A stretch of 64,000 nt of DNA from Eledone cirrhosa (Eukaryota). Below the pieces are notes generated by a model. That model ran no database searches. It was not told the DNA's origin and saw nothing but the letters and a program-made list of their open reading frames with translations. Numbering within the stretch: the stretch's first letter is position 1; the number at the start of each line of letters is the position of its first letter. Both the position numbers and the translations under genes were made by a program. Shown here one piece after another: positions 242 through 49,560 of this stretch. The stretch spans positions 96,410,001 to 96,474,000 of the forward strand of contig OZ024742.1 of NCBI GenBank assembly GCA_964016885.1, in the 5' to 3' direction.

Positions 242-534
242 CACACGCACTTAAAAGCATATATATATACATTTGCATATATATATATACTCTTACACTG
301 GCGCATACAAACATATATATATATACATTCACACATATATGTATATGTTTTAAAGTTTGGGGTTAAAACCAGGTTGTGTTAGATTGATGCAGAACTATTG
401 AAACTGCCATCCTTATTCTGGTTTATATATATTACATGCTGTTTTCTTTCTGGAACAATCTGTAGCAGGCATTTATTGTATTTATTCCAATAAATAAAGA
501 AAACATATTGCTTTATTTTTATTATTATTTTTTT

Positions 535-922
535 TGTGGATTGGCTGTATTGGTAGAGCTTTGGACAACGTACCTTGCAGAATAGAGTAACAGCCCTTTA
601 CTTTCTTAGTTCAAATCACACAGAGGTTAGCTTTGCCTTTCATTCTTTTGGGATTAATTAAAGGAAGTAGCAATAATGCACTATAGTTAATTTTATTGAC
701 TTTCACCTTACCGCAAAATGTTTGGCCTAGTGCTGGTGGATTGGCAGTATTGGCAGAGCATCAGACACCGTGCTTTGCAGCCTAGAGTTATGGCCCTTTA
801 CGTTCTGAGTTCAAATCCCGCCATGGTTAGCTTTACCTTTCATCCTTACGGGATTGATAAAATAAAACAGTAATAATGCACTGGGGTAATTGCTGGCCTT
901 GTGCCCAAATTATAAACAATTA
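535..922 (+). mobile_element. Two tandem copies of SINE family A
   Basis: ggtagagc...gagttcaaatcccgcc...tttgcctttcatcc...ataaaataaagtaccagtaatgcactgg...ttgctggccttgtgcc. Further copies at ~1480-1640, 7030-7230, 27300-27375(-), 57660-57770 and 59600-59780. Confidence 0.8.
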
Positions 923-1716
923 TTATCATCTGTGTGTTTATGTGGTGGTTGTAATATTCACCCCACCAAAAATCTATCACATCACTAACAGCACTCATAC
1001 CACAATCTTCTTCTTCTTCTTCTTCTTCTTCTTCTTCTTCTGTTGCTGCCTGGTATACTTTTCTATGAATATGAAAAACATTTTGTTATTCTCTTTGTGC
1101 ACAGAAAAACATGTTGACTGCTACATAATTCACAGTTCACTGGCTGTTTATTAGAAGACAGGCACCTCTTGTCTTTTCACCTATAAAGAGAACATATTGC
1201 TTAATGCTATTTATATTAAACACAAACAAGAACTTAACTGAAATGGCCAGTCTAAAATGTAAACAGATCTCTATCTTTTTTACTATAACACACTTTGCTG
1301 GTGAACAGCCAACTAGATGTGAAACATATAGAGGCAAATTTTTATGTTTTTTCTTTGTGCAGAGAGAATATTTTTCACAATTGTTTACAATTCTCACCAA
1401 AGCTTATAAAGTATAATAATACCAACATTATATTGATCTCATAAGTTCTTCTTCAGACATGCTCTGTAATATATAGAGATAGCCTTTACTTTCAGAGTTT
1501 AAATCCCGTCATAGCTAGCTTTGCCTTTCATCCTTATGGGATTGATAACATAAAGTACCAGCAATGCACTGGGGTAGAATAATGGACCTTTCCACTTGAA
1601 ATTGCTGGCCTTGTGCCAAAAGTTGAACAGTTATTTTATTACTGTGTGTTTGTGCAGTATGTGGTATATATATAGTAAATATATATATATAATATATATA
1701 TATATAATATATATAT

Positions 1717-2043
1717 CTTAGTGGTTATAGCATTGGCCTTGCAATCGAAAGGTTGTGAGTTCAATTCTCAGACCGGGTGATGTGTTGTTTCCTTGAGCAA
1801 GACACTTTATTTCACATTGCTCCAGTTTACTCAGCTGTAGAAATGAGATGATAGGGACTGGAGTCCCTATCGTTCCACTGCAAAGTGGTCGTGGAAGTGC
1901 CACGGCAAAAAAGCACCCAGCACTCACTGTAAATGAGGTTGGTGTTAAGAAGGGCAGCCATCTGTAGAAATCAAGCCAGAATCAGTTCCCGTCCCACCCT
2001 TGCAAAGAAAAGTGGACGTAAAATGAAATGATGATGAATGATG

Positions 2044-2045
<2 letters not shown>
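1717..2045 (+). mobile_element. SINE family B copy
   Basis: Colinear with 54213-54558; flanked by (TA)n. Confidence 0.88.
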
Positions 2046-2074
<29 letters not shown>

Positions 2075-5000
2075 TTGCTTTTACTGAGTCGCTTGTTGTT
2101 TTAACTCAACACCTGACTATCATAATCACTACCATTGCAGCAAGCATCATCACCACCATCACCAGTGCTACAATGATAATGCTGAATACATGTAATGTGA
2201 GATAATGTAGCATAATGTTTGTTGGAGTAGTGGTATAATTTTGTGTTTTTGTATTTCTTATTTTTTTTATTCATGGGAAATATTTCTGTTAAAAGTATAC
2301 GAGGAAATATGATGATGGTGATGATGGCAATGTAGGCGGTGGAGGTGACAACAATAATGTTGGTGAGGGTGATAGTGATAGTGATGATGATGGTAATGAT
2401 AATAATTTACTGTTTGACGTAAATAAAAGAAAAATCAATAAATAATGAAATGCAACCATTATGATTGTAACAATGGTGTTGGTGGTGGTGCTGCTGGTAA
2501 TGATGGTGATGCTGTTAGTGTGGTGGTGGAAACTATGTTGGTGTTGGTAGTGATGGTGGTGTTGCTAGTACTGATAGTAGTGTTAGGAGTAGTGGTAATG
2601 GTACTGATGCTGTTAGTGTGGTGGTGGAAACTATGTTGGTGTTGGTAGTAGTTTATTTTGGTAGTAGTGATTGTGGTGGTGATTATTATCAGGGTGATGA
2701 CCATGAAGCCAGCAAAATTATGGTAAATTTATTTTTGTGATGATGAGTTTTACTTTACAATCTGAAGGCAAAAATGTATTTGTGATTAACTCCAGAATAT
2801 TACTGGTGTTGTGAAGATGGTTAAGGTGTTTAGCTTATGACTGCAAGGTGATGAATTTGATTCCTGGTGGTCTCTTGTGTCCTGGAGCAAAATAATTTAT
2901 TTTATGTTGTTCCAGTCTACTTTGCTGGAAAAAAATTAGTTATACTAGTATTTCAAAAGTCCAGCTTTTACACACTCTGTCACACTGAATCTCTCTGAGA
3001 ACTATGTTAAGTGGACAGATGTCTGTGGAATGCTCAGCCACTTGCAAGTTAATTGCATAAGCAAATGGATCATTCCTTGGAATTTGCAGAGATCCAACAA
3101 CATTATATCAAAGTTTTTATCATCTAACAGAACGAGATGAAATATATCATATTTTACGATACTGGTAGTGAGAGGTGCAAGCATGCCTAGTGCTTAAAAT
3201 GTTTATGTTGCAGTGACATGATTGTGAGTTTGATCCTACTGTATGACTCCTTGAGCACTCAATTGTCTTTTACTATAAGATCAGGGTTACCTTCACTATA
3301 GAATCAGTGTTGTTAATTTATTCAAATTTAAACATATTAAATTAGGGTTAATATTGCACTAAAAAACTTGGGTATTTCCTTTAAAAAACATTGGGAAAAG
3401 GTGATAAGATAAGAAAAAAAATCATTATTTCGAGTGGTTATTAATTATGTAGCAAACATTGCTGCTAAAACATTTAAAATTGATTTAATAAAATATAAAA
3501 TCGATTGATGTATCCTATATTCAATTAAAATTTAAGAATTATAAATCAAAGCTCTCTTCCAAAATGTAGAGCCTGTTATCAACTTTTTCCTCTGGGGTCA
3601 TCTTAAAGACACTTATTCTTATCTTCTGAAAGATATTCTTTGGTAAATGGACAATATTCATGGCACCAAATACATCAGTATTAAAATGCATCAAAATAAA
3701 TAGTTTTAATGCAAAATCTCTTTACAAAGATTCTTCAATCAAAAATGAAATCATATTCTACATTTCAACCCAGTGTTCATTCCATAGTTGTATCCATTGG
3801 AAGACTATTTTAACTATGGTCTCACCATTTTTATAAAACAAAATTTAGATTGTCTACAATTATAGGTTTGGTAGGTCTAAGGTTCTCTGATATACCATCA
3901 CATTTCTTGTATTCTAAAACTTTGGAACTATCTAGTAGTCCTTGCTTAATTTGCTCGATGAAAAATTTAATGCATTATTGACTCATAACATTTTCTTGTT
4001 TTTGAGGAAATTGACATTTGGAAAATTCATTCTAAAATTGAAAAATGAGGTAGATTTGGGGTCTTACAAAATCCCGAGAACACCTCATATTTATACGTTT
4101 TCCTGGTTTGACTATAATGGAACTAATATAATCTATAAGATATTATGGAGCATTCAATGATAATATAGCTGGATCTTGTGTTTGAGCATTAAAACTTTGT
4201 TATCTCTTTGCACGTGAAGTAGTGTTTGTTTAAAATAAATATTGAAAAAATAGATAAAAATACAGAATTGTAGCTATAGAATATCTTTCTGCATTTCTTA
4301 CTAAGCTAAAAGGGAAATGAAGTTCAACCCACTGTTCAACATTCCGCTAAAAGAAACTTCAATAGTAAAAGGAGCTACATGAAAGCCTAATTTAAAAGGA
4401 ACTTACCATCATTCATTGAGGCAAATATTGTTTACTGTTTACTTGGTGGACATAAGAATGTAAAAGCCAATTATAAGTTTCCTAAAATTCTGTACTCCAA
4501 ATGATAGTGATTGTGTCTGGCAGATAGTATCAACAATGGAATATTAACATGGCATGGTGGTGATTAGAACATCTTCAACTCTTAGGCTATTTTTTAACTC
4601 TTTTGTCCATGATTTTCAAATAATATTTTATATGATAAATGATTTAGTAATATAACTAATCCTCTGATCACAGACTTGGTACTTTATAATACATATTTTA
4701 TTACATATAATCATGATGGGGTGTTTTTATATAAATAAAATCATTTAAAAACATTTAAAAACAAACCAGTGGGAGTGGTCGATGTTAGGAAAGGCATCCA
4801 ACCATGAAAACCATATCAAAAGAGAATATAGTCCACTCCCCTGTCCAGGACTGTAGCTATGATTAAGTATTGACTACATCTGTAACAATCCATCCCACCC
4901 ATGCAAGTATGGAATCAAATTGTGGATGAAAAAATGATGGTGATGATATATCTTTAAAATTGGCTGGTAGGAAACCCAGATCTTAATTTCATAATTTTCA

Positions 5001-5545
5001 GTCATTATACAAAAACACTTTTACATGTATTTTTTATCAGCATTAATCCAAGATTGGTTGAGCCAGCTCCAGCCAGTGTATCTACTCCAACACAAACAGA
5101 CTCTACCCATGCATGACAATCACAGATATCTGGTGTAGATATTGTCTGCCAGTTATGGTTCTCACAGCTGACACCATATATGCAAGGACCAGATATTGCC
5201 TCAAAATCCCATTTGATCATGACACCCAACATTTTCAATTATCTATCATGCTGTTTACATCTCCTTGACAGGAGCATTGACATGACTGCAGCATGGATGA
5301 GTTTACTTTAAAGGTGGTAGTGTGTGTGGCTAAACTAACAAACACAGGATGGTAATGAGATGAATACATAATTAAATGATTCTTTGATCTCTCACCAGCT
5401 TGCTGTTCTTTATCTCAATCAGAGCTGACTGTAATTAATAAATTAACTAGTGTGTATCATTAGTAGAGGGCAAATGAATGTCAGAAAATAATTTCCATTG
5501 GGAACCATATGAAAGCTTGTTAGATTTTAATATGTCTTACATTAA

Positions 5546-5752
5546 CCCCTTTGAAACCAAACTGGCTGAAATCGCCACTCATTCTATAACAGAAAATTCT
5601 TTATCATAAAGTTTTTATATAAAGACATTCCATCATAATTTTATATAAGAAATTTATTTACTTTACTAAATCCCTCTCAATTCTTGATAATTAAAAAACA
5701 ATTCTTTGAAAAGAACTGGCATTCTTTCATTAAAAGTATGGTAACAAAGGGG
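5546..5752. mobile_element. piggyBac-type MITE
   Basis: TTAA on both sides; TIRs cccctttgaaacca / tggtaacaaagggg (12/14). Related ends at ~6843, 20662 and 61579-61831. Confidence 0.7.
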
Positions 5753-7457
5753 TTAATAGCTTTACACTAATGTGACTGTTGCTCCTTATGTGGATAGCAT
5801 ATGTGAGTTATTATTTTGTAAACAATTCATGTTTTCTATGTCAACAGGTACAATCTTAATATTTGTGATTTCCAGACTGCTACTTTGGTAAGTAGGTTGA
5901 AACCTGTGCTTTAACACTGAGGCTTATATCCACTAGTTCATATAACCCTGGCACTGCTGTGTTGCAATTGTAGCCTTGGTCAGATTATAGCTGTAATATA
6001 CCAACCAGACTGGAATATAGAGTCTGCCTCTGCCTACTCTTTTATTATTTAATATTTTTTTGCAAACATATAACTGAATTGAAATATTTAGCAAAAAATA
6101 TATTAATTTACATCTGATAGATAGCATAACATGGATACAATATGTGGATGTTTGCAGCAGCACAGCAACACTAATGTGTGCTTTGTAAATAGTTAGCTTA
6201 TCCTTTAAGATGACTCGAAGTAGAAATTTGATAATCAAAGTCATTCAGTATTACTTTTGTGTAATCATTTATATGACATAAATATGTTTTGACCTCCACC
6301 TCACTCATATATGGAGTTATGTTCTATTTCTCAATCTTTGGTCGTGTTTGTGAATACATAATTTAAAATTTCTTAAGTGTTTCGATGGTTTTCTACACCA
6401 GGTTCAGTTTTTTCTCAAAACCAGTAGGATTGTTGACCTGTTGATGGATACTTCTGTTCATGAAAAAAGTCTTAGTTTATCTGATAAGAGACTGGTCGAT
6501 GAAGAAATAAGGAAGGAAGAAAGGAAGAATACATAGTTTGTCAGATTGAGGTTTCCTTTCATCTTCCATTTCAGCATTTATTTCCTCCAGTTATAATCGA
6601 TATTAATATCAAGGAAAATATGTTTACATTTATCAAATATATATAATGTATTGAATTTAATATCAATATTGTCTGGCTTCACTTCATTCGCTTCAAAATT
6701 CCTAAATTGATCTGAATTATGGAGAGGTAAAATAGCTGACTGGCTAAGATATTGGACCATTCACCTTATCAATCAAAAAATACTTTATTTGGTAAGCTAT
6801 TGGACTACCACCATATTACTTACAAAATAGCTGAATGGGATATTAACCCTCTTGATACCAAACTACCTAAAATGGCTCTAGTTCTGTGATACACAATTAT
6901 TTGTTTAAATTTGTTATTTACCATTTTTCTAATAAAATACACAGTTTGTGAATTTTAAATCAGTTTGAAAATAAACAAGAATTTGAAGGAATTAAGTAAT
7001 ATAACTAACACTCTCATTATTAAGCTTATAGAATGGCAGTATCTGTGTAGAGATTTGTACAAATTACTTTGTAGTAATTAGTTACAACTTTCTACTTTCT
7101 GAATTCAAATTCATCTCAGGTTAAGTTTGCCTTTCAACCTGATTGATAAAATGAAATACCAGTAAAGTACTAAGAGCGATATGATCAAATTTTTCCTTCT
7201 CTCAAATTGCTGACCTTGTACTAAGAATTATTAATCTGGTGTTTTGTACATAACTTGAATGCTTTTCTAAAATGGTGATGGATGGCATAAATATAAATAA
7301 GAACATTTTAAAATAATCAGTTGTGTATCATAGAACAAGAGACAGTCTCAGATAGCTTGCATCAAAGAAGTTAGTGTTTATATTTATTTAAAAACTTCCA
7401 TCACAATTTTATGTACGGACCTTTGTTTAGTTATGTACCAAACACCAGCTTAATATT

Positions 7458-13058: not shown

Positions 13059-13258
13059 NNNNNNNNNNNNNNNNNNNNNNNNNNNNNNNNNNNNNNNNNN
13101 NNNNNNNNNNNNNNNNNNNNNNNNNNNNNNNNNNNNNNNNNNNNNNNNNNNNNNNNNNNNNNNNNNNNNNNNNNNNNNNNNNNNNNNNNNNNNNNNNNNN
13201 NNNNNNNNNNNNNNNNNNNNNNNNNNNNNNNNNNNNNNNNNNNNNNNNNNNNNNNNNN
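13059..13258. other. Assembly gap (200 N)
   Basis: Run of exactly 200 N. Confidence 1.
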
Positions 13259-30117: not shown

Positions 30118-30362
30118 AACCAGTAAGACCCCAACTCTACTACCTCAAGTATTGAGTACTTTGGTGCGTTATGGTCCACCTGGTTCCTTACCACATTTCC
30201 TTCGTTATATATATATATATATATATATGTAGATAAATCTACCAAGAGTTTACGGTAGTGTCCAATCCGTATGAAGAACTCAATGTATTCCGGATATCAT
30301 GGAAAGAAGAGATGCAATGAAAATCCACTTTCGGTGAAAGATAAACGGTATACAGAGTCAAG

Positions 30363-30407
30363 ATAAAATATTAAACAAATAATGAATAAACAATTCCTTA
30401 TATTAAA

Positions 30408-30451
<44 letters not shown>

Positions 30452-31425
30452 CATTATTTAACGATCGTTTCTAGGGTATATATGTGTTATAATTGGTATG
30501 CATATTCAACAGATCTATGTACAAAATTATACATAATTATACAAATTATCAAGATTAAATATACATACCCAACACATATATACGCCGTCTTCAGAAATAA
30601 TGAAGTATATTTATTGATAATAACAACAATTCAAAATATCAGTTCAAAATTGACCAATGAAAACACAAAGGGTTAAAAGCAGTTCGGTGTGTGTATATAC
30701 ATGTAAAATCCTTACACATATTTTACAATAATGTGTGTATAATTTGTATGCGCATACTAAAAAGATGGATGCAAACACAAAATTTCAAGGTTAATATCTC
30801 TGTAAGCTTAATGCGCTGATATGATGCGCACTGATACTTATGGAGTCAAGCATATAAATATATTTTTTCATACTCACACATATCAGTATAATCACACATA
30901 CATGCGCGTATATGCATAAATATACACATAACCACGAACATACAAACACACACACTCCCCCACTCACATTTATATATGTGGATATAAAATCATAAGCACA
31001 TAGAAATTAAGTCACTCACATAAAACACTGGCACACACATTTCAAGATCAAGATACAGAAATTAGGTGGGAGGGGGGGGAGGGGTCAGTATTCAATTGTC
31101 TGAGCAGACTGCCTAATATAAATGTATCTATAAATTAAGAAAAATAAAAAAATAAAAACAATAAAATATAATAAATATAATATAATGTACATACACATAC
31201 AGATATATATACACATACATACATGTACGCGCACATAGAGATATTTACGCATACACACATACACACATACATATACAGTCATACACACACATACACTTAC
31301 ACGAACATACACATACACATATAAAAAGATATATATATACACACACACACACGCGCAACACATACACACATACACATATATATAAAAAATAGATGATAAA
31401 GATATATATCCATATATATATATAT

Positions 31426-31470
<45 letters not shown>

Positions 31471-31559
31471 TATACATATACATACACATTCATCTAAATA
31501 TACATACACATACATACACACATACATGTACATACATGTACATACATATACGCACATCG

Positions 31560-31605
<46 letters not shown>

Positions 31606-31933
31606 TCACATAGACATAAAGATACATACACACACAACTTACATACACACGTATATATATATATATATAGATGTACCTTCATACATAGAATTAGATATAT
31701 AATCATACATACATATGCACCTACTTATACTCATATAAATAAATACATACGCTTCCATATATGTGTATATACATAAAAAACAATACAACCTCACCAAACT
31801 CAGACATACAAATGAAAATAATAATAAAAAGGCATATGTATATACATACACACACGCATTAATAGAGATATATATATATACACACACATACATACACATA
31901 TATATATACATACACACACATATATATACGCAT

Positions 31934-31982
<49 letters not shown>

Positions 31983-31986
31983 TAGA

Positions 31987-32021
<35 letters not shown>

Positions 32022-32119
32022 ATATATATCCACACATTCATACCACCATAAATACACATACAAACAACCACATGTATATATATATATATATATATACATC
32101 TATATACACACACGTATAC

Positions 32120-32154
<35 letters not shown>

Positions 32155-32316
32155 CACACACATAAAAAACAGACATGCACATATATATATATATATATAT
32201 TTCATTACTCTTATATATACACATATTATATATACATACACAACCTCACTTATACACATATACACATAAGTTATATTACAATAATAATAAAGAATAATAT
32301 ACATATATATATATAC

Positions 32317-32348
<32 letters not shown>

Positions 32349-32465
32349 ATACATACATACACATACATACATACACATAAATATATACATACATAAATAC
32401 ACACATACGAATAAAGACATATATTCACACATAGACACCTATATATATATATATATATATATATC

Positions 32466-32503
<38 letters not shown>

Positions 32504-34126
32504 CACATACACACACACACACACATACAGACACACATAGACACTCACATATATATATATATATATGTGTATGTGAGTGTGCGCACATACACATATATAC
32601 ACACACACATACAAACACACACAAACACATACATATGCATACGTGCACACACACACACATATATCACATAGATACGAAGATAAACATATAAATAGAGAGA
32701 CATACATATATATACACAACACACATACACATACATACATACACGCATATACATATACATACATATATACACATATATATATTCCTATATATACAAGCAT
32801 ACACATACATACACATATATACACATACATACACATATACATACAACACATTCACATACACATACATATATAATACATATATATACATATATATACATAC
32901 ATATGTATGTACAATCATATATACACACACAATCTTACATTCATATTTGCATGCTCATATATGTATTTTTATATTTAGATATAAATACCCAAACCTATAT
33001 AGACACCTACCTACATATATATTCATACATAGACGCTTACAAATACAGATGATAATAGTATGGGGGAAAGGGGGGGTTTGGAGAAGGGGATCAAAGTAAA
33101 TATATGTTTCAAGAAACATATAATATTTTCCGTATCTTAATTCAATGTATGTTCTTACATATTTTCAGTGCTAGGAAATACGAAATCTATGCATCTCAAA
33201 ATAAATAAGTATACCATTAATCATATGTTAACTAAACCAAAGATAGTCAACATATTGATTTCTAAGGTGTAAATTAGTTAGGTTTATAATATTTGAAGCA
33301 GAATTTTGAAGTCAAACAGTAGTAGATTATTAATTACATTATAACTAAATTAAAGTTAATAACGTTATGGTATCAATATTAGGAGATGAATTTAGTAATA
33401 GGGAAAAGAAACCCAAATAAAAATAAAATAAAGTATTACATCGGTAGTAGCATATAAATTATATGTTAACTAAATTAAAAATTATATATTTATTTCAATA
33501 GTATACGTTAATTAGTATATGTTAATTAGGTATACAATACATAAAGCAGATATTGTATTTCATCAATAGCATAATATAATTATATGCAAATAGAAATCAA
33601 AATTAATACGCATACATATACATATACATACACATACACATATACATACATATACACACATATATATATACATATATATATATATATACACATATACATA
33701 TATACACACATATACATACATACAGATACACATACACAACACACACATATACATATACATATACATATACATATCTTTTTCAAAAAATTGCACAGAATAT
33801 ATTAACTAGGTATATATCCAAAACACATCCCATTCTATGATTACATGACATTCTGCAATTCGTCTGTATAAGGATACTAATTTTAAGCAAATTAAAATTA
33901 AAGTTTTAGGTTGATTAAAACTAAAACCAAATAATAAATATATTTCCAAAATGTATATTAATTAGGTCTATAATACTAAAAATTCTTTCTCCGTCATTGG
34001 ATACATGATATTATTTTGTTATATTTTATCTGTAAAAGAATTATAATAAAAGGTTTAAATAAATTAAAATTAATCTATAAATTAAATTACTAAGTATATA
34101 TTAGTAATATTTAAAGGTTTTTCACA
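30363..34126 (+). repeat. Left arm of giant inverted repeat (element 3' UTR/pLTR)
   Basis: Runs from ataaaatattaaacaaat to aaaggtttttcaca. Mirrored ORF-track translations are identical or nearly so (e.g. 30482+ vs 39785-, 33584+ vs 36656-). Confidence 0.97.
30450..30604 (-). ncRNA. Type I hammerhead ribozyme with very long stem II (left arm, sense to the ORF)
   Basis: Reverse complement of 39857-40011; lies ~3.6 kb downstream of the ORF stop. Confidence 0.8.
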
Positions 34127-34230
34127 ATTTATGATTACATAATATTTTCTCATCTGTAATAAAATATTAATTAAATTAAATTTATAGGTTAACTAACATT
34201 TAAATTAAATTAATTTCTAGAATAATGTTA

Positions 34231-36333
34231 TTAATTAGGTTTATAATATTTAAATGTTTTTTTTAGTTTATGATTACACGAAATAATTAATTCCTGTCGT
34301 TTATTTAATAAGATATCCTTAGACTTCATTATTTCAAATAGTTCTTGGGAACATAATCTACATTCCTTTCTATTATTTTGATAAGGGGTGGCTCTTTTGA
34401 GCACACTCCAGGTCAAATCATATTTTATATTCTTATTTTTATAACTATTAATTTTTTCTGCTAGAGATGTTGTATTAGCCAGTGCGGCATTTTTAAAACT
34501 ATGTTTGTGGGTATTAAACCTTGTCTTAAAATTGTTAGAGGTAGCTCCTATATATGAGCAAATAGAATCTTTAGTTTTAACATTACATTTATAGACTATG
34601 TTGTTAACAAGACAATTCCCTTTTAATGGGCAGTTTGTTTTGTTTCTACAGTTACATCCTTTCGTTAATTCTGTATTTGAGGAGATATTATTGTTAATTT
34701 GATGTACTGGTGGTATACTTATGGTTTTCTTACATTTATATGCATTATATGCACTTATATTTTGTTTTATGTTATTTGTTGTAGAGTATGAGAATTTAAC
34801 TGTAGACCTATTTAAGATTTGATGGTATTTGTGGTTTGGCGGGAAGTTTTTCTCAAGGATATAAAAAAATTTTTTAGCAATATTATCCTTAACTTGTAAA
34901 TTAAAAGGAGCATTATACCAAGTAACTCGTCTATTACGGTTTCTATGTTGTTTATTATTTTTATTATTTTTATAGGTTGTATCATGATTTTTACTAGGAG
35001 GATTAATGTTAATGATCTCACCACAACTATTTTTAGTTATATTTGTAGATTTAGGTGTTTTATCTTTTTTATAAGGAGTTTTATTATTAATATTTATTAT
35101 AGTTGTATGATGAGTAGTTTTTTGAGGGTTACTATACTTTATATTAGAAGATTTAGTATTTTGGGGTATATTGTGGGTGGCATTTAGGTGTGTACTTTTC
35201 ATTTGGTGTTTGTTGGTAATATTATGCTGTATGCTTTCAGTATTTTTAGTAGAAGGTATATACTCTAATCTATTTTTGTGGCCACTTCTATCTAGAGCTT
35301 CATTATAAAAGGTCGCATTTTTATCAAATACATCTTGGTTAGAAGAAAGGTTAGAAATTCTAAGTGATATATTATATGCAAGGTTTTTAAGGATAGATTT
35401 AGGGTGATTAGATTGTGAGTGTATGTAATGTAAGTTTTGGTTAGGTTTATGGTAAGGTTGGTATATACCCGTAGCTAAATCTAAAGTTATATCTAGGAAA
35501 TTTACTACTTTACTTGTTTTTTCAAAAGTAATATTAAGATTATAATAGTCTTTAAGGAAAGTTCTAATATGTTTTTTGTTTTTTTCGATTTCTGAAAGGC
35601 TAAGGTTGTTAGAAAGAAGAAGACAGTCATCACGATATAAACCACCTTTGAGGTGGGGAAAAGAGGCATTTATGTTGAAGAGGAGAAAGAGGCCCACAAG
35701 ATCAGTAATTTGGGCGGAATCGCTTGAACCCATAGTAATATCAAAAAGATTACTGTATGTGTTTCTGGTCCAGTATTCATTCTGAAATTCAATAAGTGTT
35801 AGTCTAGCATGTGTAATAATGTTAATGTCATCCGAAGTTAAATTAGATCTATTTTTAGCAAATATTAATGCTTTGTTCAGGAGTATGGGTGATATAGAAG
35901 AATAGTAATTATCTATATCAAATTGTAGGAAAGAAGCAGAAGATTTACACCTAATATTTTTAAACCAATTAATTACCTGGGAGGTGTTTTCCCAGAGTGG
36001 TAAAATAACGTATTTTCTTATTTGTGGGATGACTCTATCTAAAATTTTTTTGCTAATTATTCCAATATCTGATTTGGAGGGACATATAAGTCTAATAGAA
36101 GGATTAGAGTTAAAGTTAGATTTGTGATCTTTCAGGTTGAAGTGTGGTCTTTTCAATGCCAAAGGTTCAGTTCTATCTTCAATGTTTAGTTTTTTTACTA
36201 TGTTGTGTGTTTTGTTGTTGATGTTGGTGAGTGACACATTATTAGATTTTTTATAATTTTTTCTGAGTTCTTTATATATGAACTCATTATAATGTTCAAT
36301 ATCCATATGATACAAGTTACCAGTTTTGTCCGA
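34231..36333 (-). CDS. PLE reverse transcriptase + C-terminal GIY-YIG endonuclease (Naiad-like); N-terminally truncated, otherwise open
   Basis: Motifs in order: SDKTGNLY (just upstream of the TTG used by the ORF track), LKDHK..F..NPSIRLICP, FLQFDIDNYYSSI, ITMGS..S, GGLYRDD, VNFLDITL, YHKP..YIH..SNHP, WYNAPF, CNCRNKTNCPLKGNC, IVY..YIG.T..FKTRFNTH, W..L..A.PY..C.LC..E, LLNKR.E..C.H. There is no true ATG; the frame is cut at the inverted-repeat junction. Confidence 0.95.
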   Translation of the reverse strand, partial: SDKTGNLYHMDIEHYNEFIYKELRKNYKKSNNVSLTNINNKTHNIVKKLNIEDRTEPLALKRPHFNLKDHKSNFNSNPSIRLICPSKSDIGIISKKILDRVIPQIRKYVILPLWENTSQVINWFKNIRCKSSASFLQFDIDNYYSSISPILLNKALIFAKNRSNLTSDDINIITHARLTLIEFQNEYWTRNTYSNLFDITMGSSDSAQITDLVGLFLLFNINASFPHLKGGLYRDDCLLLSNNLSLSEIEKNKKHIRTFLKDYYNLNITFEKTSKVVNFLDITLDLATGIYQPYHKPNQNLHYIHSQSNHPKSILKNLAYNISLRISNLSSNQDVFDKNATFYNEALDRSGHKNRLEYIPSTKNTESIQHNITNKHQMKSTHLNATHNIPQNTKSSNIKYSNPQKTTHHTTIININNKTPYKKDKTPKSTNITKNSCGEIININPPSKNHDTTYKNNKNNKQHRNRNRRVTWYNAPFNLQVKDNIAKKFFYILEKNFPPNHKYHQILNRSTVKFSYSTTNNIKQNISAYNAYKCKKTISIPPVHQINNNISSNTELTKGCNCRNKTNCPLKGNCLVNNIVYKCNVKTKDSICSYIGATSNNFKTRFNTHKHSFKNAALANTTSLAEKINSYKNKNIKYDLTWSVLKRATPYQNNRKECRLCSQELFEIMKSKDILLNKRQELIISCNHKLKKTFKYYKPN

Positions 36334-36334
36334 A

Positions 36335-37957
36335 TGTGAAAAACCTTTAAATATTACTAATATATACTTAGTAATTTAATTTATAGATTAATTTTAATTT
36401 ATTTAAACCTTTTATTATAATTCTTTTACAGATAAAATATAACAAAATAATATCATGTATCCAATGACGGAGAAAGAATTTTTAGTATTATAGACCTAAT
36501 TAATATACATTTTGGAAATATATTTATTATTTGGTTTTAGTTTTAATCAACCTAAAACTTTAATTTTAATTTGCTTAAAATTAGTATCCTTATACAGACG
36601 AATTGCAGAATGTCATGTAATCATAGAATGGGATGTGTTTTGGATATATACCTAGTTAATATATTCTGTGCAATTTTTTGAAAAAGATATGTATATGTAT
36701 ATGTATATGTATATGTGTGTGTTGTGTATGTGTATCTGTATGTATGTATATGTGTGTATATATGTATATGTGTATATATATATATATATGTATATATATA
36801 TGTGTGTATATGTATGTATATGTGTATGTGTATGTATATGTATATGTATGCGTATTAATTTTGATTTCTATTTGCATATAATTATATTATGCTATTGATG
36901 AAATACAATATCTGCTTTATGTATTGTATACCTAATTAACATATACTAATTAACGTATACTATTGAAATAAATATATAATTTTTAATTTAGTTAACATAT
37001 AATTTATATGCTACTACCGATGTAATACTTTATTTTATTTTTATTTGGGTTTCTTTTCCCTATTACTAAATTCATCTCCTAATATTGATACCATAACGTT
37101 ATTAACTTTAATTTAGTTATAATGTAATTAATAATCTACTACTGTTTGACTTCAAAATTCTGCTTCAAATATTATAAACCTAACTAATTTACACCTTAGA
37201 AATCAATATGTTGACTATCTTTGGTTTAGTTAACATATGATTAATGGTATACTTATTTATTTTGAGATGCATAGATTTCGTATTTCCTAGCACTGAAAAT
37301 ATGTAAGAACATACATTGAATTAAGATACGGAAAATATTATATGTTTCTTGAAACATATATTTACTTTGATCCCCTTCTCCAAACCCCCCCTTTCCCCCA
37401 TACTATTATCATCTGTATTTGTAAGCGTCTATGTATGAATATATATGTAGGTAGGTGTCTATATAGGTTTGGGTATTTATATCTAAATATAAAAATACAT
37501 ATATGAGCATGCAAATATGAATGTAAGATTGTGTGTGTATATATGATTGTACATACATATGTATGTATATATATGTATATATATGTATTATATATGTATG
37601 TGTATGTGAATGTGTTGTATGTATATGTGTATGTATGTGTATATATGTGTATGTATGTGTATGCTTGTATATATAGGAATATATATATGTGTATATATGT
37701 ATGTATATGTATATGCGTGTATGTATGTATGTGTATGTGTGTTGTGTATATATATGTATGTCTCTCTATTTATATGTTTATCTTCGTATCTATGTGATAT
37801 ATGTGTGTGTGTGTGCACGTATGCATATGTATGTGTTTGTGTGTGTTTGTATGTGTGTGTGTATATATGTGTATGTGCGCACACTCACATACACATATAT
37901 ATATATATATATGTGAGTGTGTATGTGTGTCTGTATGTGTGTGTGTGTGTGTATGTG

Positions 37958-37993
<36 letters not shown>

Positions 37994-38110
37994 GATATAT
38001 ATATATATATATATATATAGGTGTCTATGTGTGAATATATGTCTTTATTCGTATGTGTGTATTTATGTATGTATATATTTATGTGTATGTATGTATGTGT
38101 ATGTATGTAT

Positions 38111-38142
<32 letters not shown>

Positions 38143-38439
38143 GTATATATATATATGTATATTATTCTTTATTATTATTGTAATATAACTTATGTGTATA
38201 TGTGTATAAGTGAGGTTGTGTATGTATATATAATATGTGTATATATAAGAGTAATGAAATATATATATATATATATATGTGCATGTCTGTTTTTTATGTG
38301 TGTGTATATATATATATATATGTGTATATATATATATATATGTATACGTGTGTGTATATAGATGTATATATATATATATATATATACATGTGGTTGTTTG
38401 TATGTGTATTTATGGTGGTATGAATGTGTGGATATATAT

Positions 38440-38476
<37 letters not shown>

Positions 38477-38480
38477 TCTA

Positions 38481-38529
<49 letters not shown>

Positions 38530-38853
38530 ATGCGTATATATATGTGTGTGTATGTATATATATATGTGTATGTATGTGTGTGTATATATATATATCTCTA
38601 TTAATGCGTGTGTGTATGTATATACATATGCCTTTTTATTATTATTTTCATTTGTATGTCTGAGTTTGGTGAGGTTGTATTGTTTTTTATGTATATACAC
38701 ATATATGGAAGCGTATGTATTTATTTATATGAGTATAAGTAGGTGCATATGTATGTATGATTATATATCTAATTCTATGTATGAAGGTACATCTATATAT
38801 ATATATACGTGTGTATGTAAGTTGTGTGTGTATGTATCTTTATGTCTATGTGA

Positions 38854-38901
<48 letters not shown>

Positions 38902-38990
38902 CGATGTGCGTATATGTATGTACATGTATGTACATGTATGTGTGTATGTATGTGTATGTATATTTAGATGTATGTGTATGTATATGTATA

Positions 38991-39035
<45 letters not shown>

Positions 39036-40056
39036 ATATATATATATATGGATATATATCTTTATCATCTATTTTTTATATATATGTGTATGTGTGTATG
39101 TGTTGCGCGTGTGTGTGTGTGTATATATATATCTTTTTATATGTGTATGTGTATGTTCGTGTAAGTGTATGTGTGTGTATGACTGTATATGTATGTGTGT
39201 ATGTGTGTATGCGTAAATATCTCTATGTGCGCGTACATGTATGTATGTGTATATATATCTGTATGTGTATGTACATTATATTATATTTATTATATTTTAT
39301 TGTTTTTATTTTTTTATTTTTCTTAATTTATAGATACATTTATATTAGGCAGTCTGCTCAGACAATTGAATACTGACCCCTCCCCCCCCTCCCACCTAAT
39401 TTCTGTATCTTGATCTTGAAATGTGTGTGCCAGTGTTTTATGTGAGTGACTTAATTTCTATGTGCTTATGATTTTATATCCACATATATAAATGTGAGTG
39501 GGGGAGTGTGTGTGTTTGTATGTTCGTGGTTATGTGTATATTTATGCATATACGCGCATGTATGTGTGATTATACTGATATGTGTGAGTATGAAAAAATA
39601 TATTTATATGCTTGACTCCATAAGTATCAGTGCGCATCATATCAGCGCATTAAGCTTACAGAGATATTAACCTTGAAATTTTGTGTTTGCATCCATCTTT
39701 TTAGTATGCGCATACAAATTATACACACATTATTGTAAAATATGTGTAAGGATTTTACATGTATATACACACACCGAACTGCTTTTAACCCTTTGTGTTT
39801 TCATTGGTCAATTTTGAACTGATATTTTGAATTGTTGTTATTATCAATAAATATACTTCATTATTTCTGAAGACGGCGTATATATGTGTTGGGTATGTAT
39901 ATTTAATCTTGATAATTTGTATAATTATGTATAATTTTGTACATAGATCTGTTGAATATGCATACCAATTATAACACATATATACCCTAGAAACGATCGT
40001 TAAATAATGAACTTTTTTTGTTTAATATAAGGAATTGTTTATTCATTATTTGTTTA

Positions 40057-40065
<9 letters not shown>
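36335..40065 (-). repeat. Right arm of giant inverted repeat
   Basis: Runs from tgtgaaaaaccttt to atttgtttaatattttat. It differs from the left arm mainly in microsatellite lengths, an A40 vs T7 tract and a few substitutions. Confidence 0.97.
39857..40011 (+). ncRNA. Type I hammerhead ribozyme with very long stem II (right-arm copy)
   Basis: Stem I ttcattattt (39857-66), CTGAAGA, 116-nt stem II hairpin, GAAA (39990-93), palindromic cgatcg, TT, then aaataatgaa (40002-11), a perfect 10-bp stem I partner. Confidence 0.8.
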
Positions 40066-40105
<40 letters not shown>

Positions 40106-40729: not shown

Positions 40730-42780
40730 TAGTTTTTATGTGTTATCATTTGAAGACTAGTAAAGATTTAGATAGTTAAGTTTTCTAAAATTTAGTATAA
40801 TAGAAAGATTGAGAGCATTTAGTTGGGAAAGTAGAAATAATTTTGGATTTTTCTGTTAATAATGTTCAGTTTAGATTTTAAGATATATAAACATTCTGTA
40901 CGACATAAGCTACCTTTTTTCTTCCTGGTTTTTACGAATGGGGTACTATTAATTATTTCCATTTCATTGAGTATTCTATATTGATCTCTTTGGTGTGGCG
41001 GATATGTCTGGCTAATGGTGTTGAGTTTTGGAGTTCTTTTTTTTTTACTGAAACAGTGGCAGTGGATATAGTATCTGGACTTGAAACTATTAGAAGTAGA
41101 CCCTATATATACCTTACTGCTATTACTAGTTGCTATACTGCATTGGTAAATAATGTCTTTAGTTAAGCATTCACAATTCAGAGGGCATGCATCAGAGTTT
41201 CTACAGTTACATTCTTCATTATAGTTAGATATTGTGTCACTATTTGAATTATAATTGTGTACTTTAGTTTGAGTTAGAGGGTTTTGAAAGTTACATATTC
41301 TGTTGTCTCCTATTTCTATATTATTTGCAGTATTAGTTATGGATGATTACATTTTTCTAATTTCCTATTATTACTGGAAAGTAGGTATTTAGCTATATTA
41401 GGGGTGGTAGATATGATATTTTTCTAGTATTTTTATTTTATTAAAGATTGAGTGATAGTGGTGGGTTTGAGGGAAATGTTTCTCTAAGATATTAAAAAAT
41501 AGTTCTTATTAGAAGGATGGCTGAACGATGTAGTGGGTTTTCTGTGGTTTGATTTACGAGTTCTTATTGGTGTATAATTTGATTTAGATTTATTTTGGTT
41601 ATCTTTATGGGCGTTAAGGTTTTTATTAGTACTAGATTTATATTTATAGTTGTATGAAGGTCTATTTTCGATTTTGGTGTTTATTATATCGTTGTTGATG
41701 CAAGGATTTTTCTTTTTTTGTGTATTTTTATTATGTTTGTAGTTATTTATACTTATAAATTGATCTATTTGTTTAGTTTGTGTGTTTTTGCTATTAAATT
41801 CGCTAGGTGAATGTTTGTTCACCCATTTATAATTCCCTGGTGGATTATAATGATTTTTAGTTTTATTAATTTTATTATGGTTCAAGTTAGGTCTATGTAT
41901 TGTCATGTTAGTTGAACTAATATTACGTGTTATATTTATATGGGGGCTTTCAGTATACGTTATTTTATCACGATAAACTGATCTGTTTATTGCTTCATTA
42001 TAATATTGAGCACTCTAGATAAATGTATCTTGGTTAGAGGACAGCTTAGAAATACGGATGGAAATGTTATTGTCTATAGAGTTAAGTATTGATTTAGGAT
42101 GGTTGGAAAGTCTATTAATGTAGAATAAGTGTTCACCTGCTTTATGGAACAGTTTATATAAACCAGATTCTAGGTCTAGAAAGTTCACTATTTTATTATT
42201 GGTATCTATTGTGATTGTTAGGTTGTATTTTTTAAAGAACACATGAAGGCGTTAGTGTGTTAGCTCAATTATTCTCTTATTTCTGTTGATAGTGTAAAGT
42301 GCAGCATCATGATGTAATCTTCCCTTTAAAGACAAGGAAACTGCCCTTAAGTTTATCTAGTAAGAAAATATCGACTAAATCAATGACTTGCGCTGAGTAA
42401 CTTGAACCCATAGTTATCTCGAAATTTTCAGTGTGGATTTCTCAGGTTCAATAGTTACCATCGGATTCTATTATAGTTTTCTAGGTGTTAGTATTATATC
42501 GATTTCGGCTCTGGTTAAATCGCTTGTGCTCTTAGCCATAATTAAGGCCCTGTTCAAAAGATTAGGACATATTAGATGAGTAGTATGTATCTATGTCAAA
42601 TTGCAAGAAGCTTCATTTAATCTTATTTTGGAAGTTGGTATACTGATTTAATACCTCTGTAAATTTAATGTAAGTTTCTGTTTTAGAGTTGGGATTAAAC
42701 TATCTAATATATGTTTGCTGATCCTACTGATGTCAGATGTTGAAGGATTAATTAGTCTGATTGAGGGTTTATCCAGTTTT
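40730..42780 (-). pseudogene. Decayed Naiad-type PLE ORF (RT + GIY-YIG), divergent from the intact copy
   Basis: Fragments KPSIRLINPSTSDI, ITMGSSYSAQ, IVNFLDL..SNHPKSI, CNCRNSDACPLNCECL..IIYQC..VYIGST; multiple frameshifts and stops. Confidence 0.88.
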
Positions 42781-43429: not shown

Positions 43430-44083
43430 ATAAGAGAGTATTGAACTTTGCTTGAAGCATTGTGAAATAATAAGTAAATATCTTTAAGTCGTTTGGAAGC
43501 CTCGACAATGCAAATGGGTAAATCTCCGGGTAACAAGATCCGGTGGTGGAGAGAGAGATGTAAGTGGGTGTACGTTGAGATGCGTGGTGTGTATAAGATG
43601 TGTAAGATGTGTAGAAGAATGAAGGGAAGAGTATAAAGGATAAAATAAAAATAACAACACAAGAGAGAGTTACCTTGGGAGAGATTTAATAGTCCCTATA
43701 TATTTCGGATTCACATCCATCAACTGGGGTTTTTTTCCGGGGTGGGGGGAAAAGGTTGTCTGTCGGACAACAAACAGCGGCGGACGCTTTTCGCACCTGT
43801 CCGACAGACAACCTTTTCCCCCACTCCGGAAAAAAACCTCAGTTGATGGATGTGAATCCGAAATATATAGGGACTATTAAATCTCTCCCAAGGTAACTCT
43901 CTCTTGTGTTGTTATTTTAATTTTATCCTTTATACTCTTCCCTTCATTCTTCTACACATCTTATACACACCACGCATCTCAACGTACACCCACTTACATC
44001 TCTCTCTCCACCACCGGATCTTGTTACCCGGAGATTTACCCATTTGCATTGTTGAGGCTTCCAAACGACTTAAAGATATTTAC
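43430..44083 (-). mobile_element. ORF-less fold-back element with an HHR-like variant motif
   Basis: Inverted arms 43474-43769 and 43798-44083 (~290 bp, one 9-bp indel) around a 28-nt GC-rich loop. Short unique tail on the left. TA runs on both sides. Confidence 0.8.
43837..43872 (+). ncRNA. Hammerhead-like motif with non-canonical core (CAGUUGA)
   Basis: cct-CAGTTGA-t-ggat gtga atcc-GAAA-tata-TA-ggg. The mirror at ~43694-43729(-) has a ccc/ggg stem I. The core differs from CUGANGA at two positions. Confidence 0.45.
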
Positions 44084-44295
44084 ATATATATATTATAAAG
44101 CATATAGGTACAATGATCAAGCTCAAATCATTTTAACTAGTAACATTTTAAAAGATTATTCCTCGTTCCCAAACTATACGTATATATGTATATATATATA
44201 GAGAGAGAAAGAGATATGCATACATAATAGATATGTATGAATACATATATGTATATTTACTTATGTGTATATATACATATTCATCTAACCACACA

Positions 44296-46587: not shown

Positions 46588-46929
46588 TCATTCATAATCA
46601 TTTAATTTTACGTCCGCTTTTTCCCTGCTTACAAGGGTGGGATGGGAACTGATTCTGGCTTGATTTCTACAGCTGGATGCCCTTCCTAACACCAACCTCA
46701 TTTACAGTGAGTGCTGGGTGCTTTTTTGCCGTGACATCTCCACGACCACTTTGCAGTGGAATGATATAGACCCCAGTCCCTATCATCTCATTTCTACAGC
46801 TGAGTAAACTGGAGCAATGTGAAATAAAGTGTCTTGCTCAAGGAAACAACACATCACCCAGTCTGAGAATTGAACTCACAACCTTTCGATTGAAAGGCCA
46901 ATGCTCTAACCACTAAGCCATGTGCCTCC
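46585..46929 (-). mobile_element. SINE family B copy
   Basis: Full-length reverse-complement copy between TA runs; followed by a solo plus-strand tail at 46944-47011. Confidence 0.88.
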
Positions 46930-47011: not shown

Positions 47012-48944
47012 ATATAAATATCAGAATGGAAATAGCTGTTGAATCAGCAGGAGCTCAGTATTTGGGGTCCTGAAGCCTTCATATATATATATATATATTT
47101 ATTTATTCATTAAGACCAAGCTCTGTGGTTTTTCCTATATATCCAGAGGGTCATGAAACAAAATTCTTTTAGTCACCCTATGAGTAAACAGGAGAAACTC
47201 CAGCATAACATGACTCAAACTTGGCATCAGTAAAGAATTTATTAATTCATTAATCACTGCTGTGGTATTGAGTACTCCTTCTCACAACTGTCTTTATTAA
47301 GCATATATTTTCCTCCCCAAAACCATTAACTTTGAGGTAGCTACTGAAGATGAGAATTTTTCTTTGTTATTGTGCTTGTCAAGTTCCCCAGGTTTTTGCT
47401 CATATGTCTACTATCCCATTTGTCTTTAGTTACGAAACAGTACTCTGAAATATCTCTGACTTTTGGTTTACTATATATATGTATATATAATAAACCAAAA
47501 GTCAGAGATATAGGTGTGTTTGTGTTAGGTAAGTGTGCAACTAGAGTAACATATCTTTTTTTTTTTATATTTTCTGATATATTTGAGTATGTTTTCATAT
47601 AAATATCATATATTTAGGTATTCATACATTCTTTAATTTTCAACATATTGTAATGGATTGGCTATTTTTTCAAATCATTATCATCATGATTATGGTTTTA
47701 CATCTAATTTCTATTGTTGCATATATTAGACAGCTTGTTGCATTCTGAGGCTTGACCATCTAAACCCATCTTTCTCATACATTCCATTTTGGGCTTGGTT
47801 TCTATGGCTGGATGCCTTTCTTAAAGCCATTCTTTATAGTATCTTTGCTATCAGATAGACAATTGTGAAAATTTACAGTATTAGAGAAAAGACTATTTTT
47901 TTAATGTACTTGTTTGTACTTTCCAAGATTATCTAGCTAATAGTTTCATGAGGTACAAGACATTAAGAATTAACAACAAACAAAAATGTTTTACACAGCC
48001 AAATACCACACTCTCATAAGTTTTATAAATGAATATTACAGATTATTTTGTCCATGTCTTCTTTGTTTGCTTCTTTCTGGCTCATTTTTATTGATATATA
48101 TACATATATGTGAAGGTAGATAAGGTTTTGCTTATGTATATCAAGAATGAAAGCTTAAACAAGATAACTGCTTACCAGAGAATTTGACTTTATGGTATCC
48201 TTTGACTCGTATAGCATAAATATCCAAGCAGGGAAATATGGTATATAGGTTCAGAAGAGATTACAGAGTATATAATATAAGCAAGTATTTCACCAAGAAA
48301 AATATAGACTTTGGCAAGAAAGGAGATAGGAATTTATTGGCTTTAACATATGTTTCTGTGTCTATTATAATAGTCTACATATGCTGACTACAATATATAT
48401 TGTTCAATCATATGCTATACATAACTATTTATAACAAGGCTTCAGAAAGTTTACAATTGTTTGAGGTAGTGTCCTCCAGTATGCCTTAGAATTCAGGAAT
48501 GAGATATTCAATATAAAATTGGTATTTACGTTTAATAAAATGAAATAGAATAAAATAAAATACAGTAAGTTAGTGTGATAAGTAGAGAAAGTTAGGAAGA
48601 GAGGGGATGGGGGTAAAGAGTTTCACATTATCATTCTGTGTGCTGTAATGTGGTACAATTTTTCTTTTGATCATTGGTATGAGTGAAGGTTTCAGTGTTT
48701 GCCATGTATGGTCAGGAGGTCAGAGCGGGTAGAAAGAGAGGGATAGAAAAGGAAAGGGTGAAAGTTAAGAATATGATAAAATGGAGAAGGAGGAGAAGGA
48801 ATTAAGAATGTTTTGAAGACTATTGAATTCTTTGGGTGCAGTGTGAAAAGTTCAAATGCTACAATTAAATGTACTAAATAGGATGTAGTAAATTATAAGT
48901 TTTAAAGATTGAATCTAATTCTAGTCCAGTTTGTATTTAGCGAA

Positions 48945-49560
48945 GGTTTTTAGAACCTTATGCTTGCAATTAGCTACCCTATCATGCCAGGAATTTAGGT
49001 CCTTTCCAGTTGCTATTTCAATCACCTCCACCAGACACAATTAAGAGGGGCATCTTTCATTCTGGTATGGACAGGCAAATTTCAACAAAGCCCATTGCAG
49101 TGTGTATTCAATATTGGCGCGCTTCAGGTCCCAGAAGTTTTTCACTAGGGCCATAGATCTAGCTAAACTGGGGTTTCAAAATGTGTGGATGTACACCTAC
49201 CATCTCATCTTGAAAAGTTTTGAAGTGGCATCCACATATTTAGGTATTCCGAGTGTTTATTTGACCACACATTGGTAAACAATGTTTTTGTACATAACAA
49301 ATTTTAACAGACTGGTGCAACCACCAAAGAGAGAGATATTCAAACAGTACACTGGCATGACTCACGACATAATCAGCTGAAAGACAAAACATCAAACTCC
49401 CATACATGAATATTTTGTATGCGTGGTTTCTCATCTCACCTATGAGAGATGCAAAGATGGATGGTATCACACTATAGACATAATCGGATTTGAAATCATG
49501 ACTCCAACTCATCAAAGGACATAACACATGCCTTGGGTATATCACACTTTCACTTCTAAC
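48945..49560 (-). pseudogene. Old Naiad-type PLE GIY-YIG remnant
   Basis: Hand translation of the minus strand gives NIVYQCVVK, FKMRW, SMALVKNFWDLKRANIEYTLQWALLKFACPYQNERC and CLVEVIEIATGKDLNSWHDRVANCKHKVLKT. This is colinear with the C-terminus of the 694-aa ORF. Confidence 0.72.

Follow-up and report, generated by a model that had tools for sequence, protein, structure and literature searches.

How does one retroelement insertion come to hold two nearly identical copies of the same sequence facing each other head to head? The question is raised by a 9.8-kb palindrome in a 64,000-nucleotide stretch of the Eledone cirrhosa genome (G000:C3:96410001-96474000, hereafter the window, with all window positions counted from its first letter). 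The palindrome consists of a Penelope-like element (PLE) of the Hydra clade. The insertion was probably produced by twin priming, in which a single sense RNA is reverse-transcribed from two fixed priming sites and the two cDNAs meet head to head. The evidence for this reading comes from the ends, arms and junctions of the locus and of its sister copies. The natural tandem unit of the family is 6,638 bp, and positions within it are denoted F. The parts of the insertion are as follows.

30206..30228: (TA)n target, left flank
30229..36333, minus strand: long-ended arm, a 5'-truncated Hydra-clade PLE copy, positions 495-6638 of the 6,638-bp unit
30229..30362, minus strand: 134-bp tail between the two putative fixed priming sites, on one end only
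30363..34126, minus strand: stretch of the long arm that recurs inverted in the right arm; 3' region rich in microsatellites
36334..36334: single non-templated junction base
36335..40065, plus strand: short-ended inverted arm, unit positions 2702-6504, only non-coding 3' region
40066..40103: (TA)n target, right flank

Aligned over 3,725 columns, the left arm (30363-34126) and the right arm (36335-40065) show 3 substitutions and 6 indels, and every difference falls within simple-repeat tracts. The largest indel involves an A40 run in the left arm (30409-30448), where the right arm has A7 and sister copies have about 8; it may reflect stutter of the reverse transcriptase (RT), later slippage or an assembly error. 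A comparable A-run expansion was seen at another locus (L095). Between the arms lies a loop of 2,208 bp. The open reading frame (ORF), on the minus strand, begins at S-DKT at 36333, next to the junction base 36334; the right arm starts with the sequence 104 bp beyond the stop codon. The right arm lacks the tail at 30229-30362, which terminates in a GTAGAT-TT-ATCTAC hairpin. Both outer ends run into pure (TA)n, so no target-site duplication (TSD) is readable at this locus. These measurements agree with the preliminary description of this DNA, which had proposed a palindrome of this size with near-identical arms, an ORF cut just before its DKT motif, an inverted copy starting about 105 bp past the stop codon without the last 134 bp, and (TA)n ends with no distinguishable TSD.

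The family to which the insertion belongs is large. Of 3,580 candidates, the 40 with the best scores show 99-100% matches to the loop. The earlier view of a young, recently active Penelope-like element holds. Searches with exact patterns, which give lower bounds, found at least 4,237 long ends at TA, at least 2,054 strict short ends at TA and at least 300 tandem junctions. The 3' region of the unit spans 4.0 kb, of which 58% is simple repeat by our own mask. The arms in the window had been thought unusually long, a view not borne out by the family, whose products range from about 0.3 kb to 38.8 kb. The window insertion is real and ordinary for its family. Several sister loci illustrate the variety of layouts. 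A 38.8-kb palindrome (G000:C2:36290966-36329723; L165, L166, L047, L048) has three units per arm with one short and one long end, and in a 31-kb array (G000:C1692; L087-L090) all units of both arms carry an identical internal deletion at about F3825-4134. At two further loci (L152, L161) the family is inserted in TA tracts of its own 3' region.

The most regular property of the family is the pairing of its ends. The long end lies at F6638 and carries the 134-nt tail, and the short end lies at or near F6504; every two-ended insertion examined (60 of 60) had one of each, with 3 of the 60 short ends displaced by 5-50 nt. Twenty-two of these cases were picked by their ORF, so that neither end had been selected, 35 were picked by their long end, and there were 3 more. 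The ORF-picked sample comprised 30 regions, 28 with an inverted arm and 2 without; both ends were in view in 22 of the 30, and 6 were cut off, one of them later completed. The long-end sample comprised 60 consecutive long ends on contig C1: 35 two-ended, 16 single-armed and 9 extending beyond the examined DNA. Starting from short ends gave the same pattern, as a long end facing outward lay within 25 kb of 35 of the 46 strict short ends in the first 100 Mb of C1, where chance would give about 1% for each. The inward-facing control gave 2, and 1 long-long pair (unchecked) was seen. At least 5 of the 11 unpaired short ends belong to single-armed copies. Because such short-end-only copies exist, either site can prime alone, and a scheme in which the long site always primes first is rejected.

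Under twin priming, both nicked strands of the (TA)n target would serve as primers on a single sense RNA, one at the long site and the other at the short site about 137 nt upstream. The GIY-YIG domain would cleave the two strands at positions about 10-12 nt apart, and about 3 nt of each 3' end would pair with the RNA, namely with AUA for the long site and with UAU for the short one. Reverse transcription would proceed from both primers, and in any region of overlap the trailing RT would displace the cDNA ahead of it. Microhomology or a few extra nucleotides would then link the two cDNA 3' ends, and host repair would fill in the product. Use of a single primer would give a single-armed copy. 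Position F6298 would be the capped 5' end of the RNA, short linear RNAs would give mini-palindromes of about 540 bp, and long and multi-unit copies would use a template without that free end. The capacity to act on both strands has a parallel in a Poseidon PLE, which cuts and extends both strands and starts reverse transcription at two internal sites bounding the tail (PMC11167929).

The 5' ends of the arms point to a defined RNA start. They cluster at F6295-6304, around the following feature.

39860, plus strand: inferred transcription start, TCA+1TT, F6298, outward-facing; left-arm counterpart at 30601, minus strand

The TCATT around A6298 is initiator-like. A structural stall is unlikely at this position because the pile-up lies past the whole ribozyme. 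Mini-palindromes centred at F6298-6300 and about 540 bp long number 545 in the genome; a fixed non-autonomous subfamily behind this class is ruled out, as the junctions differ between loci. Ahead of A6298, a non-templated G was found 217 times and the templated C 134 times (p = 1e-5, T-preceded cases excluded). An extra G would arise from copying of a cap or from addition of a C when the RT runs off, and in both cases it marks the end of a sense-strand RNA. The same strand-switch joint occurs in independent data, namely 4 Illumina reads of X20 and one contig of X1.

The two arms of an insertion appear, from their alignment, to derive from one source. Across 54 loci, arm-to-arm differences amounted to 51 in 53,220 unmasked sites, and about 755 would be expected between copies; 7 of the 60 long-end loci, which contained stray or nested segments, had been removed before the comparison, and a locus with fewer than 50 shared sites was left unscored. 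Private variants were present in both arms at 27 of 65 loci. The window insertion has 3 variants common to its two arms and found at no other sampled locus. An alternative that bears directly on these data is that two RNA molecules of one source locus are each copied once, one per site, by an asymmetric RT dimer. Such a route could do without strand displacement, a dimer is predicted for the Poseidon protein (PMC11167929), and matching arms would arise if one locus dominates in the cell. However, none of the 54 loci had arms as divergent as unrelated copies despite at least 300 tandem junctions as possible sources, and an extra rule would be needed against long-long products. We regard this alternative as improbable.

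The reach of the two arms, for which end positions were entered by hand, separates twin priming from fold-back schemes. The short arm extends further 5' than the long arm at 31 of 60 loci (15 of 35 in the long-end sample), and at 9 of those 35 the arms share no sequence, the long arm there being only a piece of tail. These 9 non-overlapping insertions look like ordinary twin-priming products. A fold-back from the long-site cDNA to the short site, or self-priming on antisense RNA as put forward in PMC3846280, would account for identical arms, fits both the window locus, where the short arm lies within the long arm, and 29 of the 60 loci, and agrees with the perfect palindrome centres at some junctions. 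Yet it cannot produce the 31 short arms that hold sequence absent from the long arm, nor the 9 arm pairs without overlap, and simple fold-back is excluded as a general route for that reason, while it could still apply to a subset of loci. Copies with a short end only and the sense template indicated by the extra G also oppose it, and we consider it quite unlikely. The preliminary description had offered two reverse-transcription events meeting head to head, or a template switch; the former stands, and the latter fits the window locus and fails at the 31 sister insertions. Of 28 junctions examined, 16 had overlaps of 1-8 nt, 2 were blunt and 10 had inserts.

An artefact of assembly or of fold-back reads, or a later inverted duplication of genomic DNA, was also considered. 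Palindromes are a known long-read artefact. No read spanned the window junction in 4 public runs, none of them known to be from the assembled individual; these runs contained solely the family's normal continuations at that point, which is uninformative for a polymorphic insertion. The window locus thus rests on the assembly and the family pattern, and the window holds a 200-N gap elsewhere (13059-13258). Against this, the short arm stops where short arms of the family regularly stop rather than at a mirror of the long end, no flanking DNA is included in the arm, a 2.2-kb loop separates the arms, 60 loci show the layout with junctions that differ, and the commonest junction was found in independent short-read data. 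An artefact or duplication is therefore very unlikely. Two independent insertions back to back in one (TA)n tract, followed by gene conversion, are the least probable reading, since the junction has no TA tract, the ends were long-short in 60 of 60 cases and both arms share private variants. In its favour, (TA)n is the target of the family, which also inserts into its own TA tracts.

Sister loci offer some information on the target site. The TA flank was interrupted at 12 of 54 loci, and 8 of these 12 showed a match of 10-12 bp; a ninth match came from a misplaced end, and shuffled flanks reached at most 4.

Several observations weigh against twin priming on one RNA. Three of the 12 informative loci had no TSD match, and the TSD evidence is suggestive only because periodic TA flanks make the shuffle lenient. 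A cap would be mimicked if the RT appended a C whenever it ran off an end. Two RNAs of one locus, or gene conversion, would also yield matching arms, and in the shared private variants an ADAR-type test counted 17 A>G and 8 T>C changes, an excess of A>G that is not significant (p = 0.11). The window locus itself is compatible with fold-back, and no read crosses its junction. A second family in the window has 1 long-long locus beside 13 long-short loci. In the Poseidon study, the start site in vitro was equal between strands and primer and start shared no homology (PMC11167929); strict pairing and 3-nt priming are not predicted from that system, which lacks both the strand difference and the homology.

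Twin priming leaves the question of what template the long copies use. On the first pass, in which an arm runs directly from its outer end, 37 of 70 arms in the long-end sample stopped at the initiator-like site. On the second pass, after crossing a unit junction, none of 48 did (p = 2e-11); the second-pass set consisted of 60 junctions in list order, 12 of which stopped before the site. A further 19 second-pass cases cross the initiator-like site without a scar. A linear RNA starting at F6298 predicts second-pass stops, so the template of long copies likely has no free 5' end. Among the 12 early stops, three lie near the predicted cleavage site (6441, 6442, 6453); they are not used as evidence because a U run and the foot of a hairpin lie there. 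Three sources for long copies were considered. Seamless jumping to the 3' repeat is a fair candidate that still falls short of an even chance, a circular RNA is a tentative proposal, and transcripts begun further upstream are a somewhat more doubtful one; some other source has a small share of the probability.

The circular template would give a role to the hammerhead ribozymes of the family. The preliminary description had placed one in each 3.7-kb arm, and a type I motif was indeed found in both by motif search and folding.

39857..40011, plus strand: type I hammerhead motif, right arm (motif and fold)
30450..30604, minus strand: type I hammerhead motif, left arm; the 3' strand of stem I enters the expanded U run
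40042..40051, plus strand: second copy of the 5' strand of stem I, TTCATTATTT (predicted pairing)

The right-arm motif has a CUGAAGA core at 39867, a long stem II and GAAA at 39990, with the cut predicted after GUU at 40001. Stem III has 2 bp (AC/GU) and a palindromic GAUC loop. This arrangement is also the one tabulated for Hydra PLEs (PMC8557442). Folded alone, the hammerhead forms stems I and II (z score -6.2). There were 161 matches to the motif in the examined loci, and the core was unchanged in the 15 commonest. Rfam gave no hammerhead at gathering score in the window, and none was among the matches listed (150 of 205); the long stem II probably defeats its models. The downstream repeat is predicted to pair with the 3' strand of stem I (probability 0.74-0.80 in the reference unit) and in this way to keep the ribozyme off. 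When the RNA was folded from its inferred start, stem I was not predicted to form, and with the downstream repeat present the monomer was predicted to misfold. Hammerheads whose short stem III carries a palindromic loop are reported to require dimers (PMC4209133). At one sister locus (L167, G000:C3:197975868-197976254), two full-length units stand head to head, and both pseudo-long terminal repeats (pLTRs) begin at F6447-6453, beside the predicted ribozyme cut.

If the template were circular, a transcript with two hammerheads would cleave as a dimer, the unit-length piece would be ligated, and both primers would roll round it, which would yield multi-unit arms that pass the start site without stopping. 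Transcripts with a single hammerhead would stay linear and capped, yielding the mini-palindromes. Were this true, PLE hammerheads would gain a function, and an autonomous animal retrotransposon would be rolling-circle and twin-primed. Two published results speak against the circle: hammerhead cleavage is unnecessary in vitro (PMC11167929), and Naiads form tandems without canonical hammerheads (PMC8557442).

The coding part of the element places it in the Hydra clade. The copy in the window has these features.

34231..36333, minus strand: truncated ORF, residues 114-813 of 813, stop-free, starting at S-DKT
36330, minus strand: DKT
35925, minus strand: QFDIDNY
35637, minus strand: YRDD, followed by an N/K-rich linker
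34656, minus strand: CxCx5C
34599-34546, minus strand: GIY-YIG (IVY...YIG)
34362, minus strand: CxxC
34278, minus strand: CxH

The ORF was said to be stop-free, which holds for the part present. A 5' truncation has removed 113 of its 813 codons, and the copy is therefore likely unable to make the full protein and is probably dead. The full ORF of the family encodes 813 aa at unit positions 156-2597. It is a single ORF with a C-terminal endonuclease, the YRDD of the RT at residue 346 preceding GIY-YIG at 692-709. An RWR motif at residue 37 of full-length sister copies lies in the region lost from the window copy. DKT is at residue 115; among 118 homologs, which bear no clade names, DKT was present in 90 and DKA in 4. 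The remaining motifs are CNCRNKTNC (CxCx5C) at 673, CRLC (CxxC) at 771 and CNH (CxH) at 799, and the three linker cysteines are invariant across 46 aligned proteins. Neither a GxKF/Y motif nor a CX2-5CxxC linker is present in the 813-aa protein, and no CCHH pattern was seen in the GIY-YIG core, judged by eye.

Published accounts (PMC8557442) give Naiads an N-terminal endonuclease, a CxC domain, DKA as a modified DKG, CX2-5CxxC, CCHH and no canonical hammerhead, and give Hydra PLEs an RT followed by a C-terminal GIY-YIG, an RWK-type motif without GxKF/Y, DKT, CxCX5C, CxxC/CxH, a canonical hammerhead and (TA)n targets. The earlier assignment to a Naiad-type element is refuted by the C-terminal GIY-YIG, DKT, the hammerhead and the lack of CX2-5CxxC and CCHH. 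By motifs, domain order and hammerhead, with named Hydra proteins compared by eye, the element fits the Hydra clade. The protein shares the motif blocks of Hydra-1_Obim (by eye), and the element is of another family since its hammerhead sequence differs. Pfam gave no match on the 813-aa protein and matched GIY-YIG in just 3 of the 46 aligned members; the best PDB sequence match was a retron RT (E 0.008). This weak support from profile libraries agrees with the description of the Hydra clade as highly divergent (PMC8557442).

Other features are present in the window. A second head-to-head stump (43430-44087), of the other family mentioned above, lies in (TA)n and has 290-bp arms with 5 mismatches and a tail of about 40 nt on one end; this family has 2,037 candidates in G000, and the long-short and long-long counts given above come from 30 of its loci. 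No canonical hammerhead was seen in it by eye. Two decayed relatives of the same clade (40849-42767 and 48930-49340, both minus strand) are 31-40% identical to the 813-aa protein and contain stops and frameshifts. A tRNA-like match lies at 46859-46922 (minus strand), and dispersed repeats resembling short interspersed elements (SINEs) were found at 21722, 24411, 27715, 29526, 46619 and 54213.

The family is large, young and long-tailed, so that the genome itself separates the models, and the likely RNA start, the two fixed priming sites and the contrast between passes are testable on one RNA. Arm-to-arm divergence can date single insertions. The genome holds thousands of kb-scale palindromes, and short ones could pass for miniature inverted-repeat transposable elements (MITEs).

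A general parallel is twin priming of L1, in which two primers from one cut site use one RNA and the cDNA 3' ends are joined by microhomology. The position of the second site varies in L1, whose arms are not known to overlap; here the second site is fixed and the arms usually overlap, which makes palindromes. The Hydra clade, which includes a listed octopus family, provides a precedent for the layout: the entry for Penelope-13_HM gives an inverted copy truncated at its 5' end, with hammerheads on both strands (PMC8557442). The present family resembles that clade in domain order, RW(K/R), DKT, CxCx5C, CxxC/CxH, the lack of CCHH, the hammerhead and (TA)n. It differs in having a unit of 6,638 bp, compared with generally less than 3 kb in Hydra (a typical rather than defining size), an 813-aa protein with an N/K-rich linker, and a stem II that closes about 115 nt rather than a short hairpin. 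With Naiads it shares the preference for (TA)n and the tandem/inverted layout (PMC8557442). The Penelope elements of Adineta vaga (PMC3846280; see also PMC8557442) have head-to-head arms, a one-sided tail, an initiator-like pLTR sequence and Asn-rich ORF inserts in common with it, and TSDs of 8-10 bp. Their tail is 30-40 nt and optional, and here it is 134 nt and on one end in 60 of 60 cases; self-priming on an antisense template, favoured in that paper, is unsupported by our data. Poseidon from Anolis (PAc; PMC11167929) is similar in that its tail lies between two internal sites at which RT starts, in cutting and extending both strands and in using uncleaved RNA as template. Its sites are inside the ORF and showed no strand preference, whereas here they lie upstream of the ORF, one per strand. 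A literature search, with the older Penelope literature outside its scope, found no account of strict long/short pairing or of a cap-like base in PLE insertions. The origin of tandem and inverted PLE insertions with one-sided tails, and the role of the hammerhead, are stated as open in PMC8557442 and PMC7761336. The inverted layout with a one-sided tail was already known for Penelope; what the family statistics and the long Hydra family add is mechanism.

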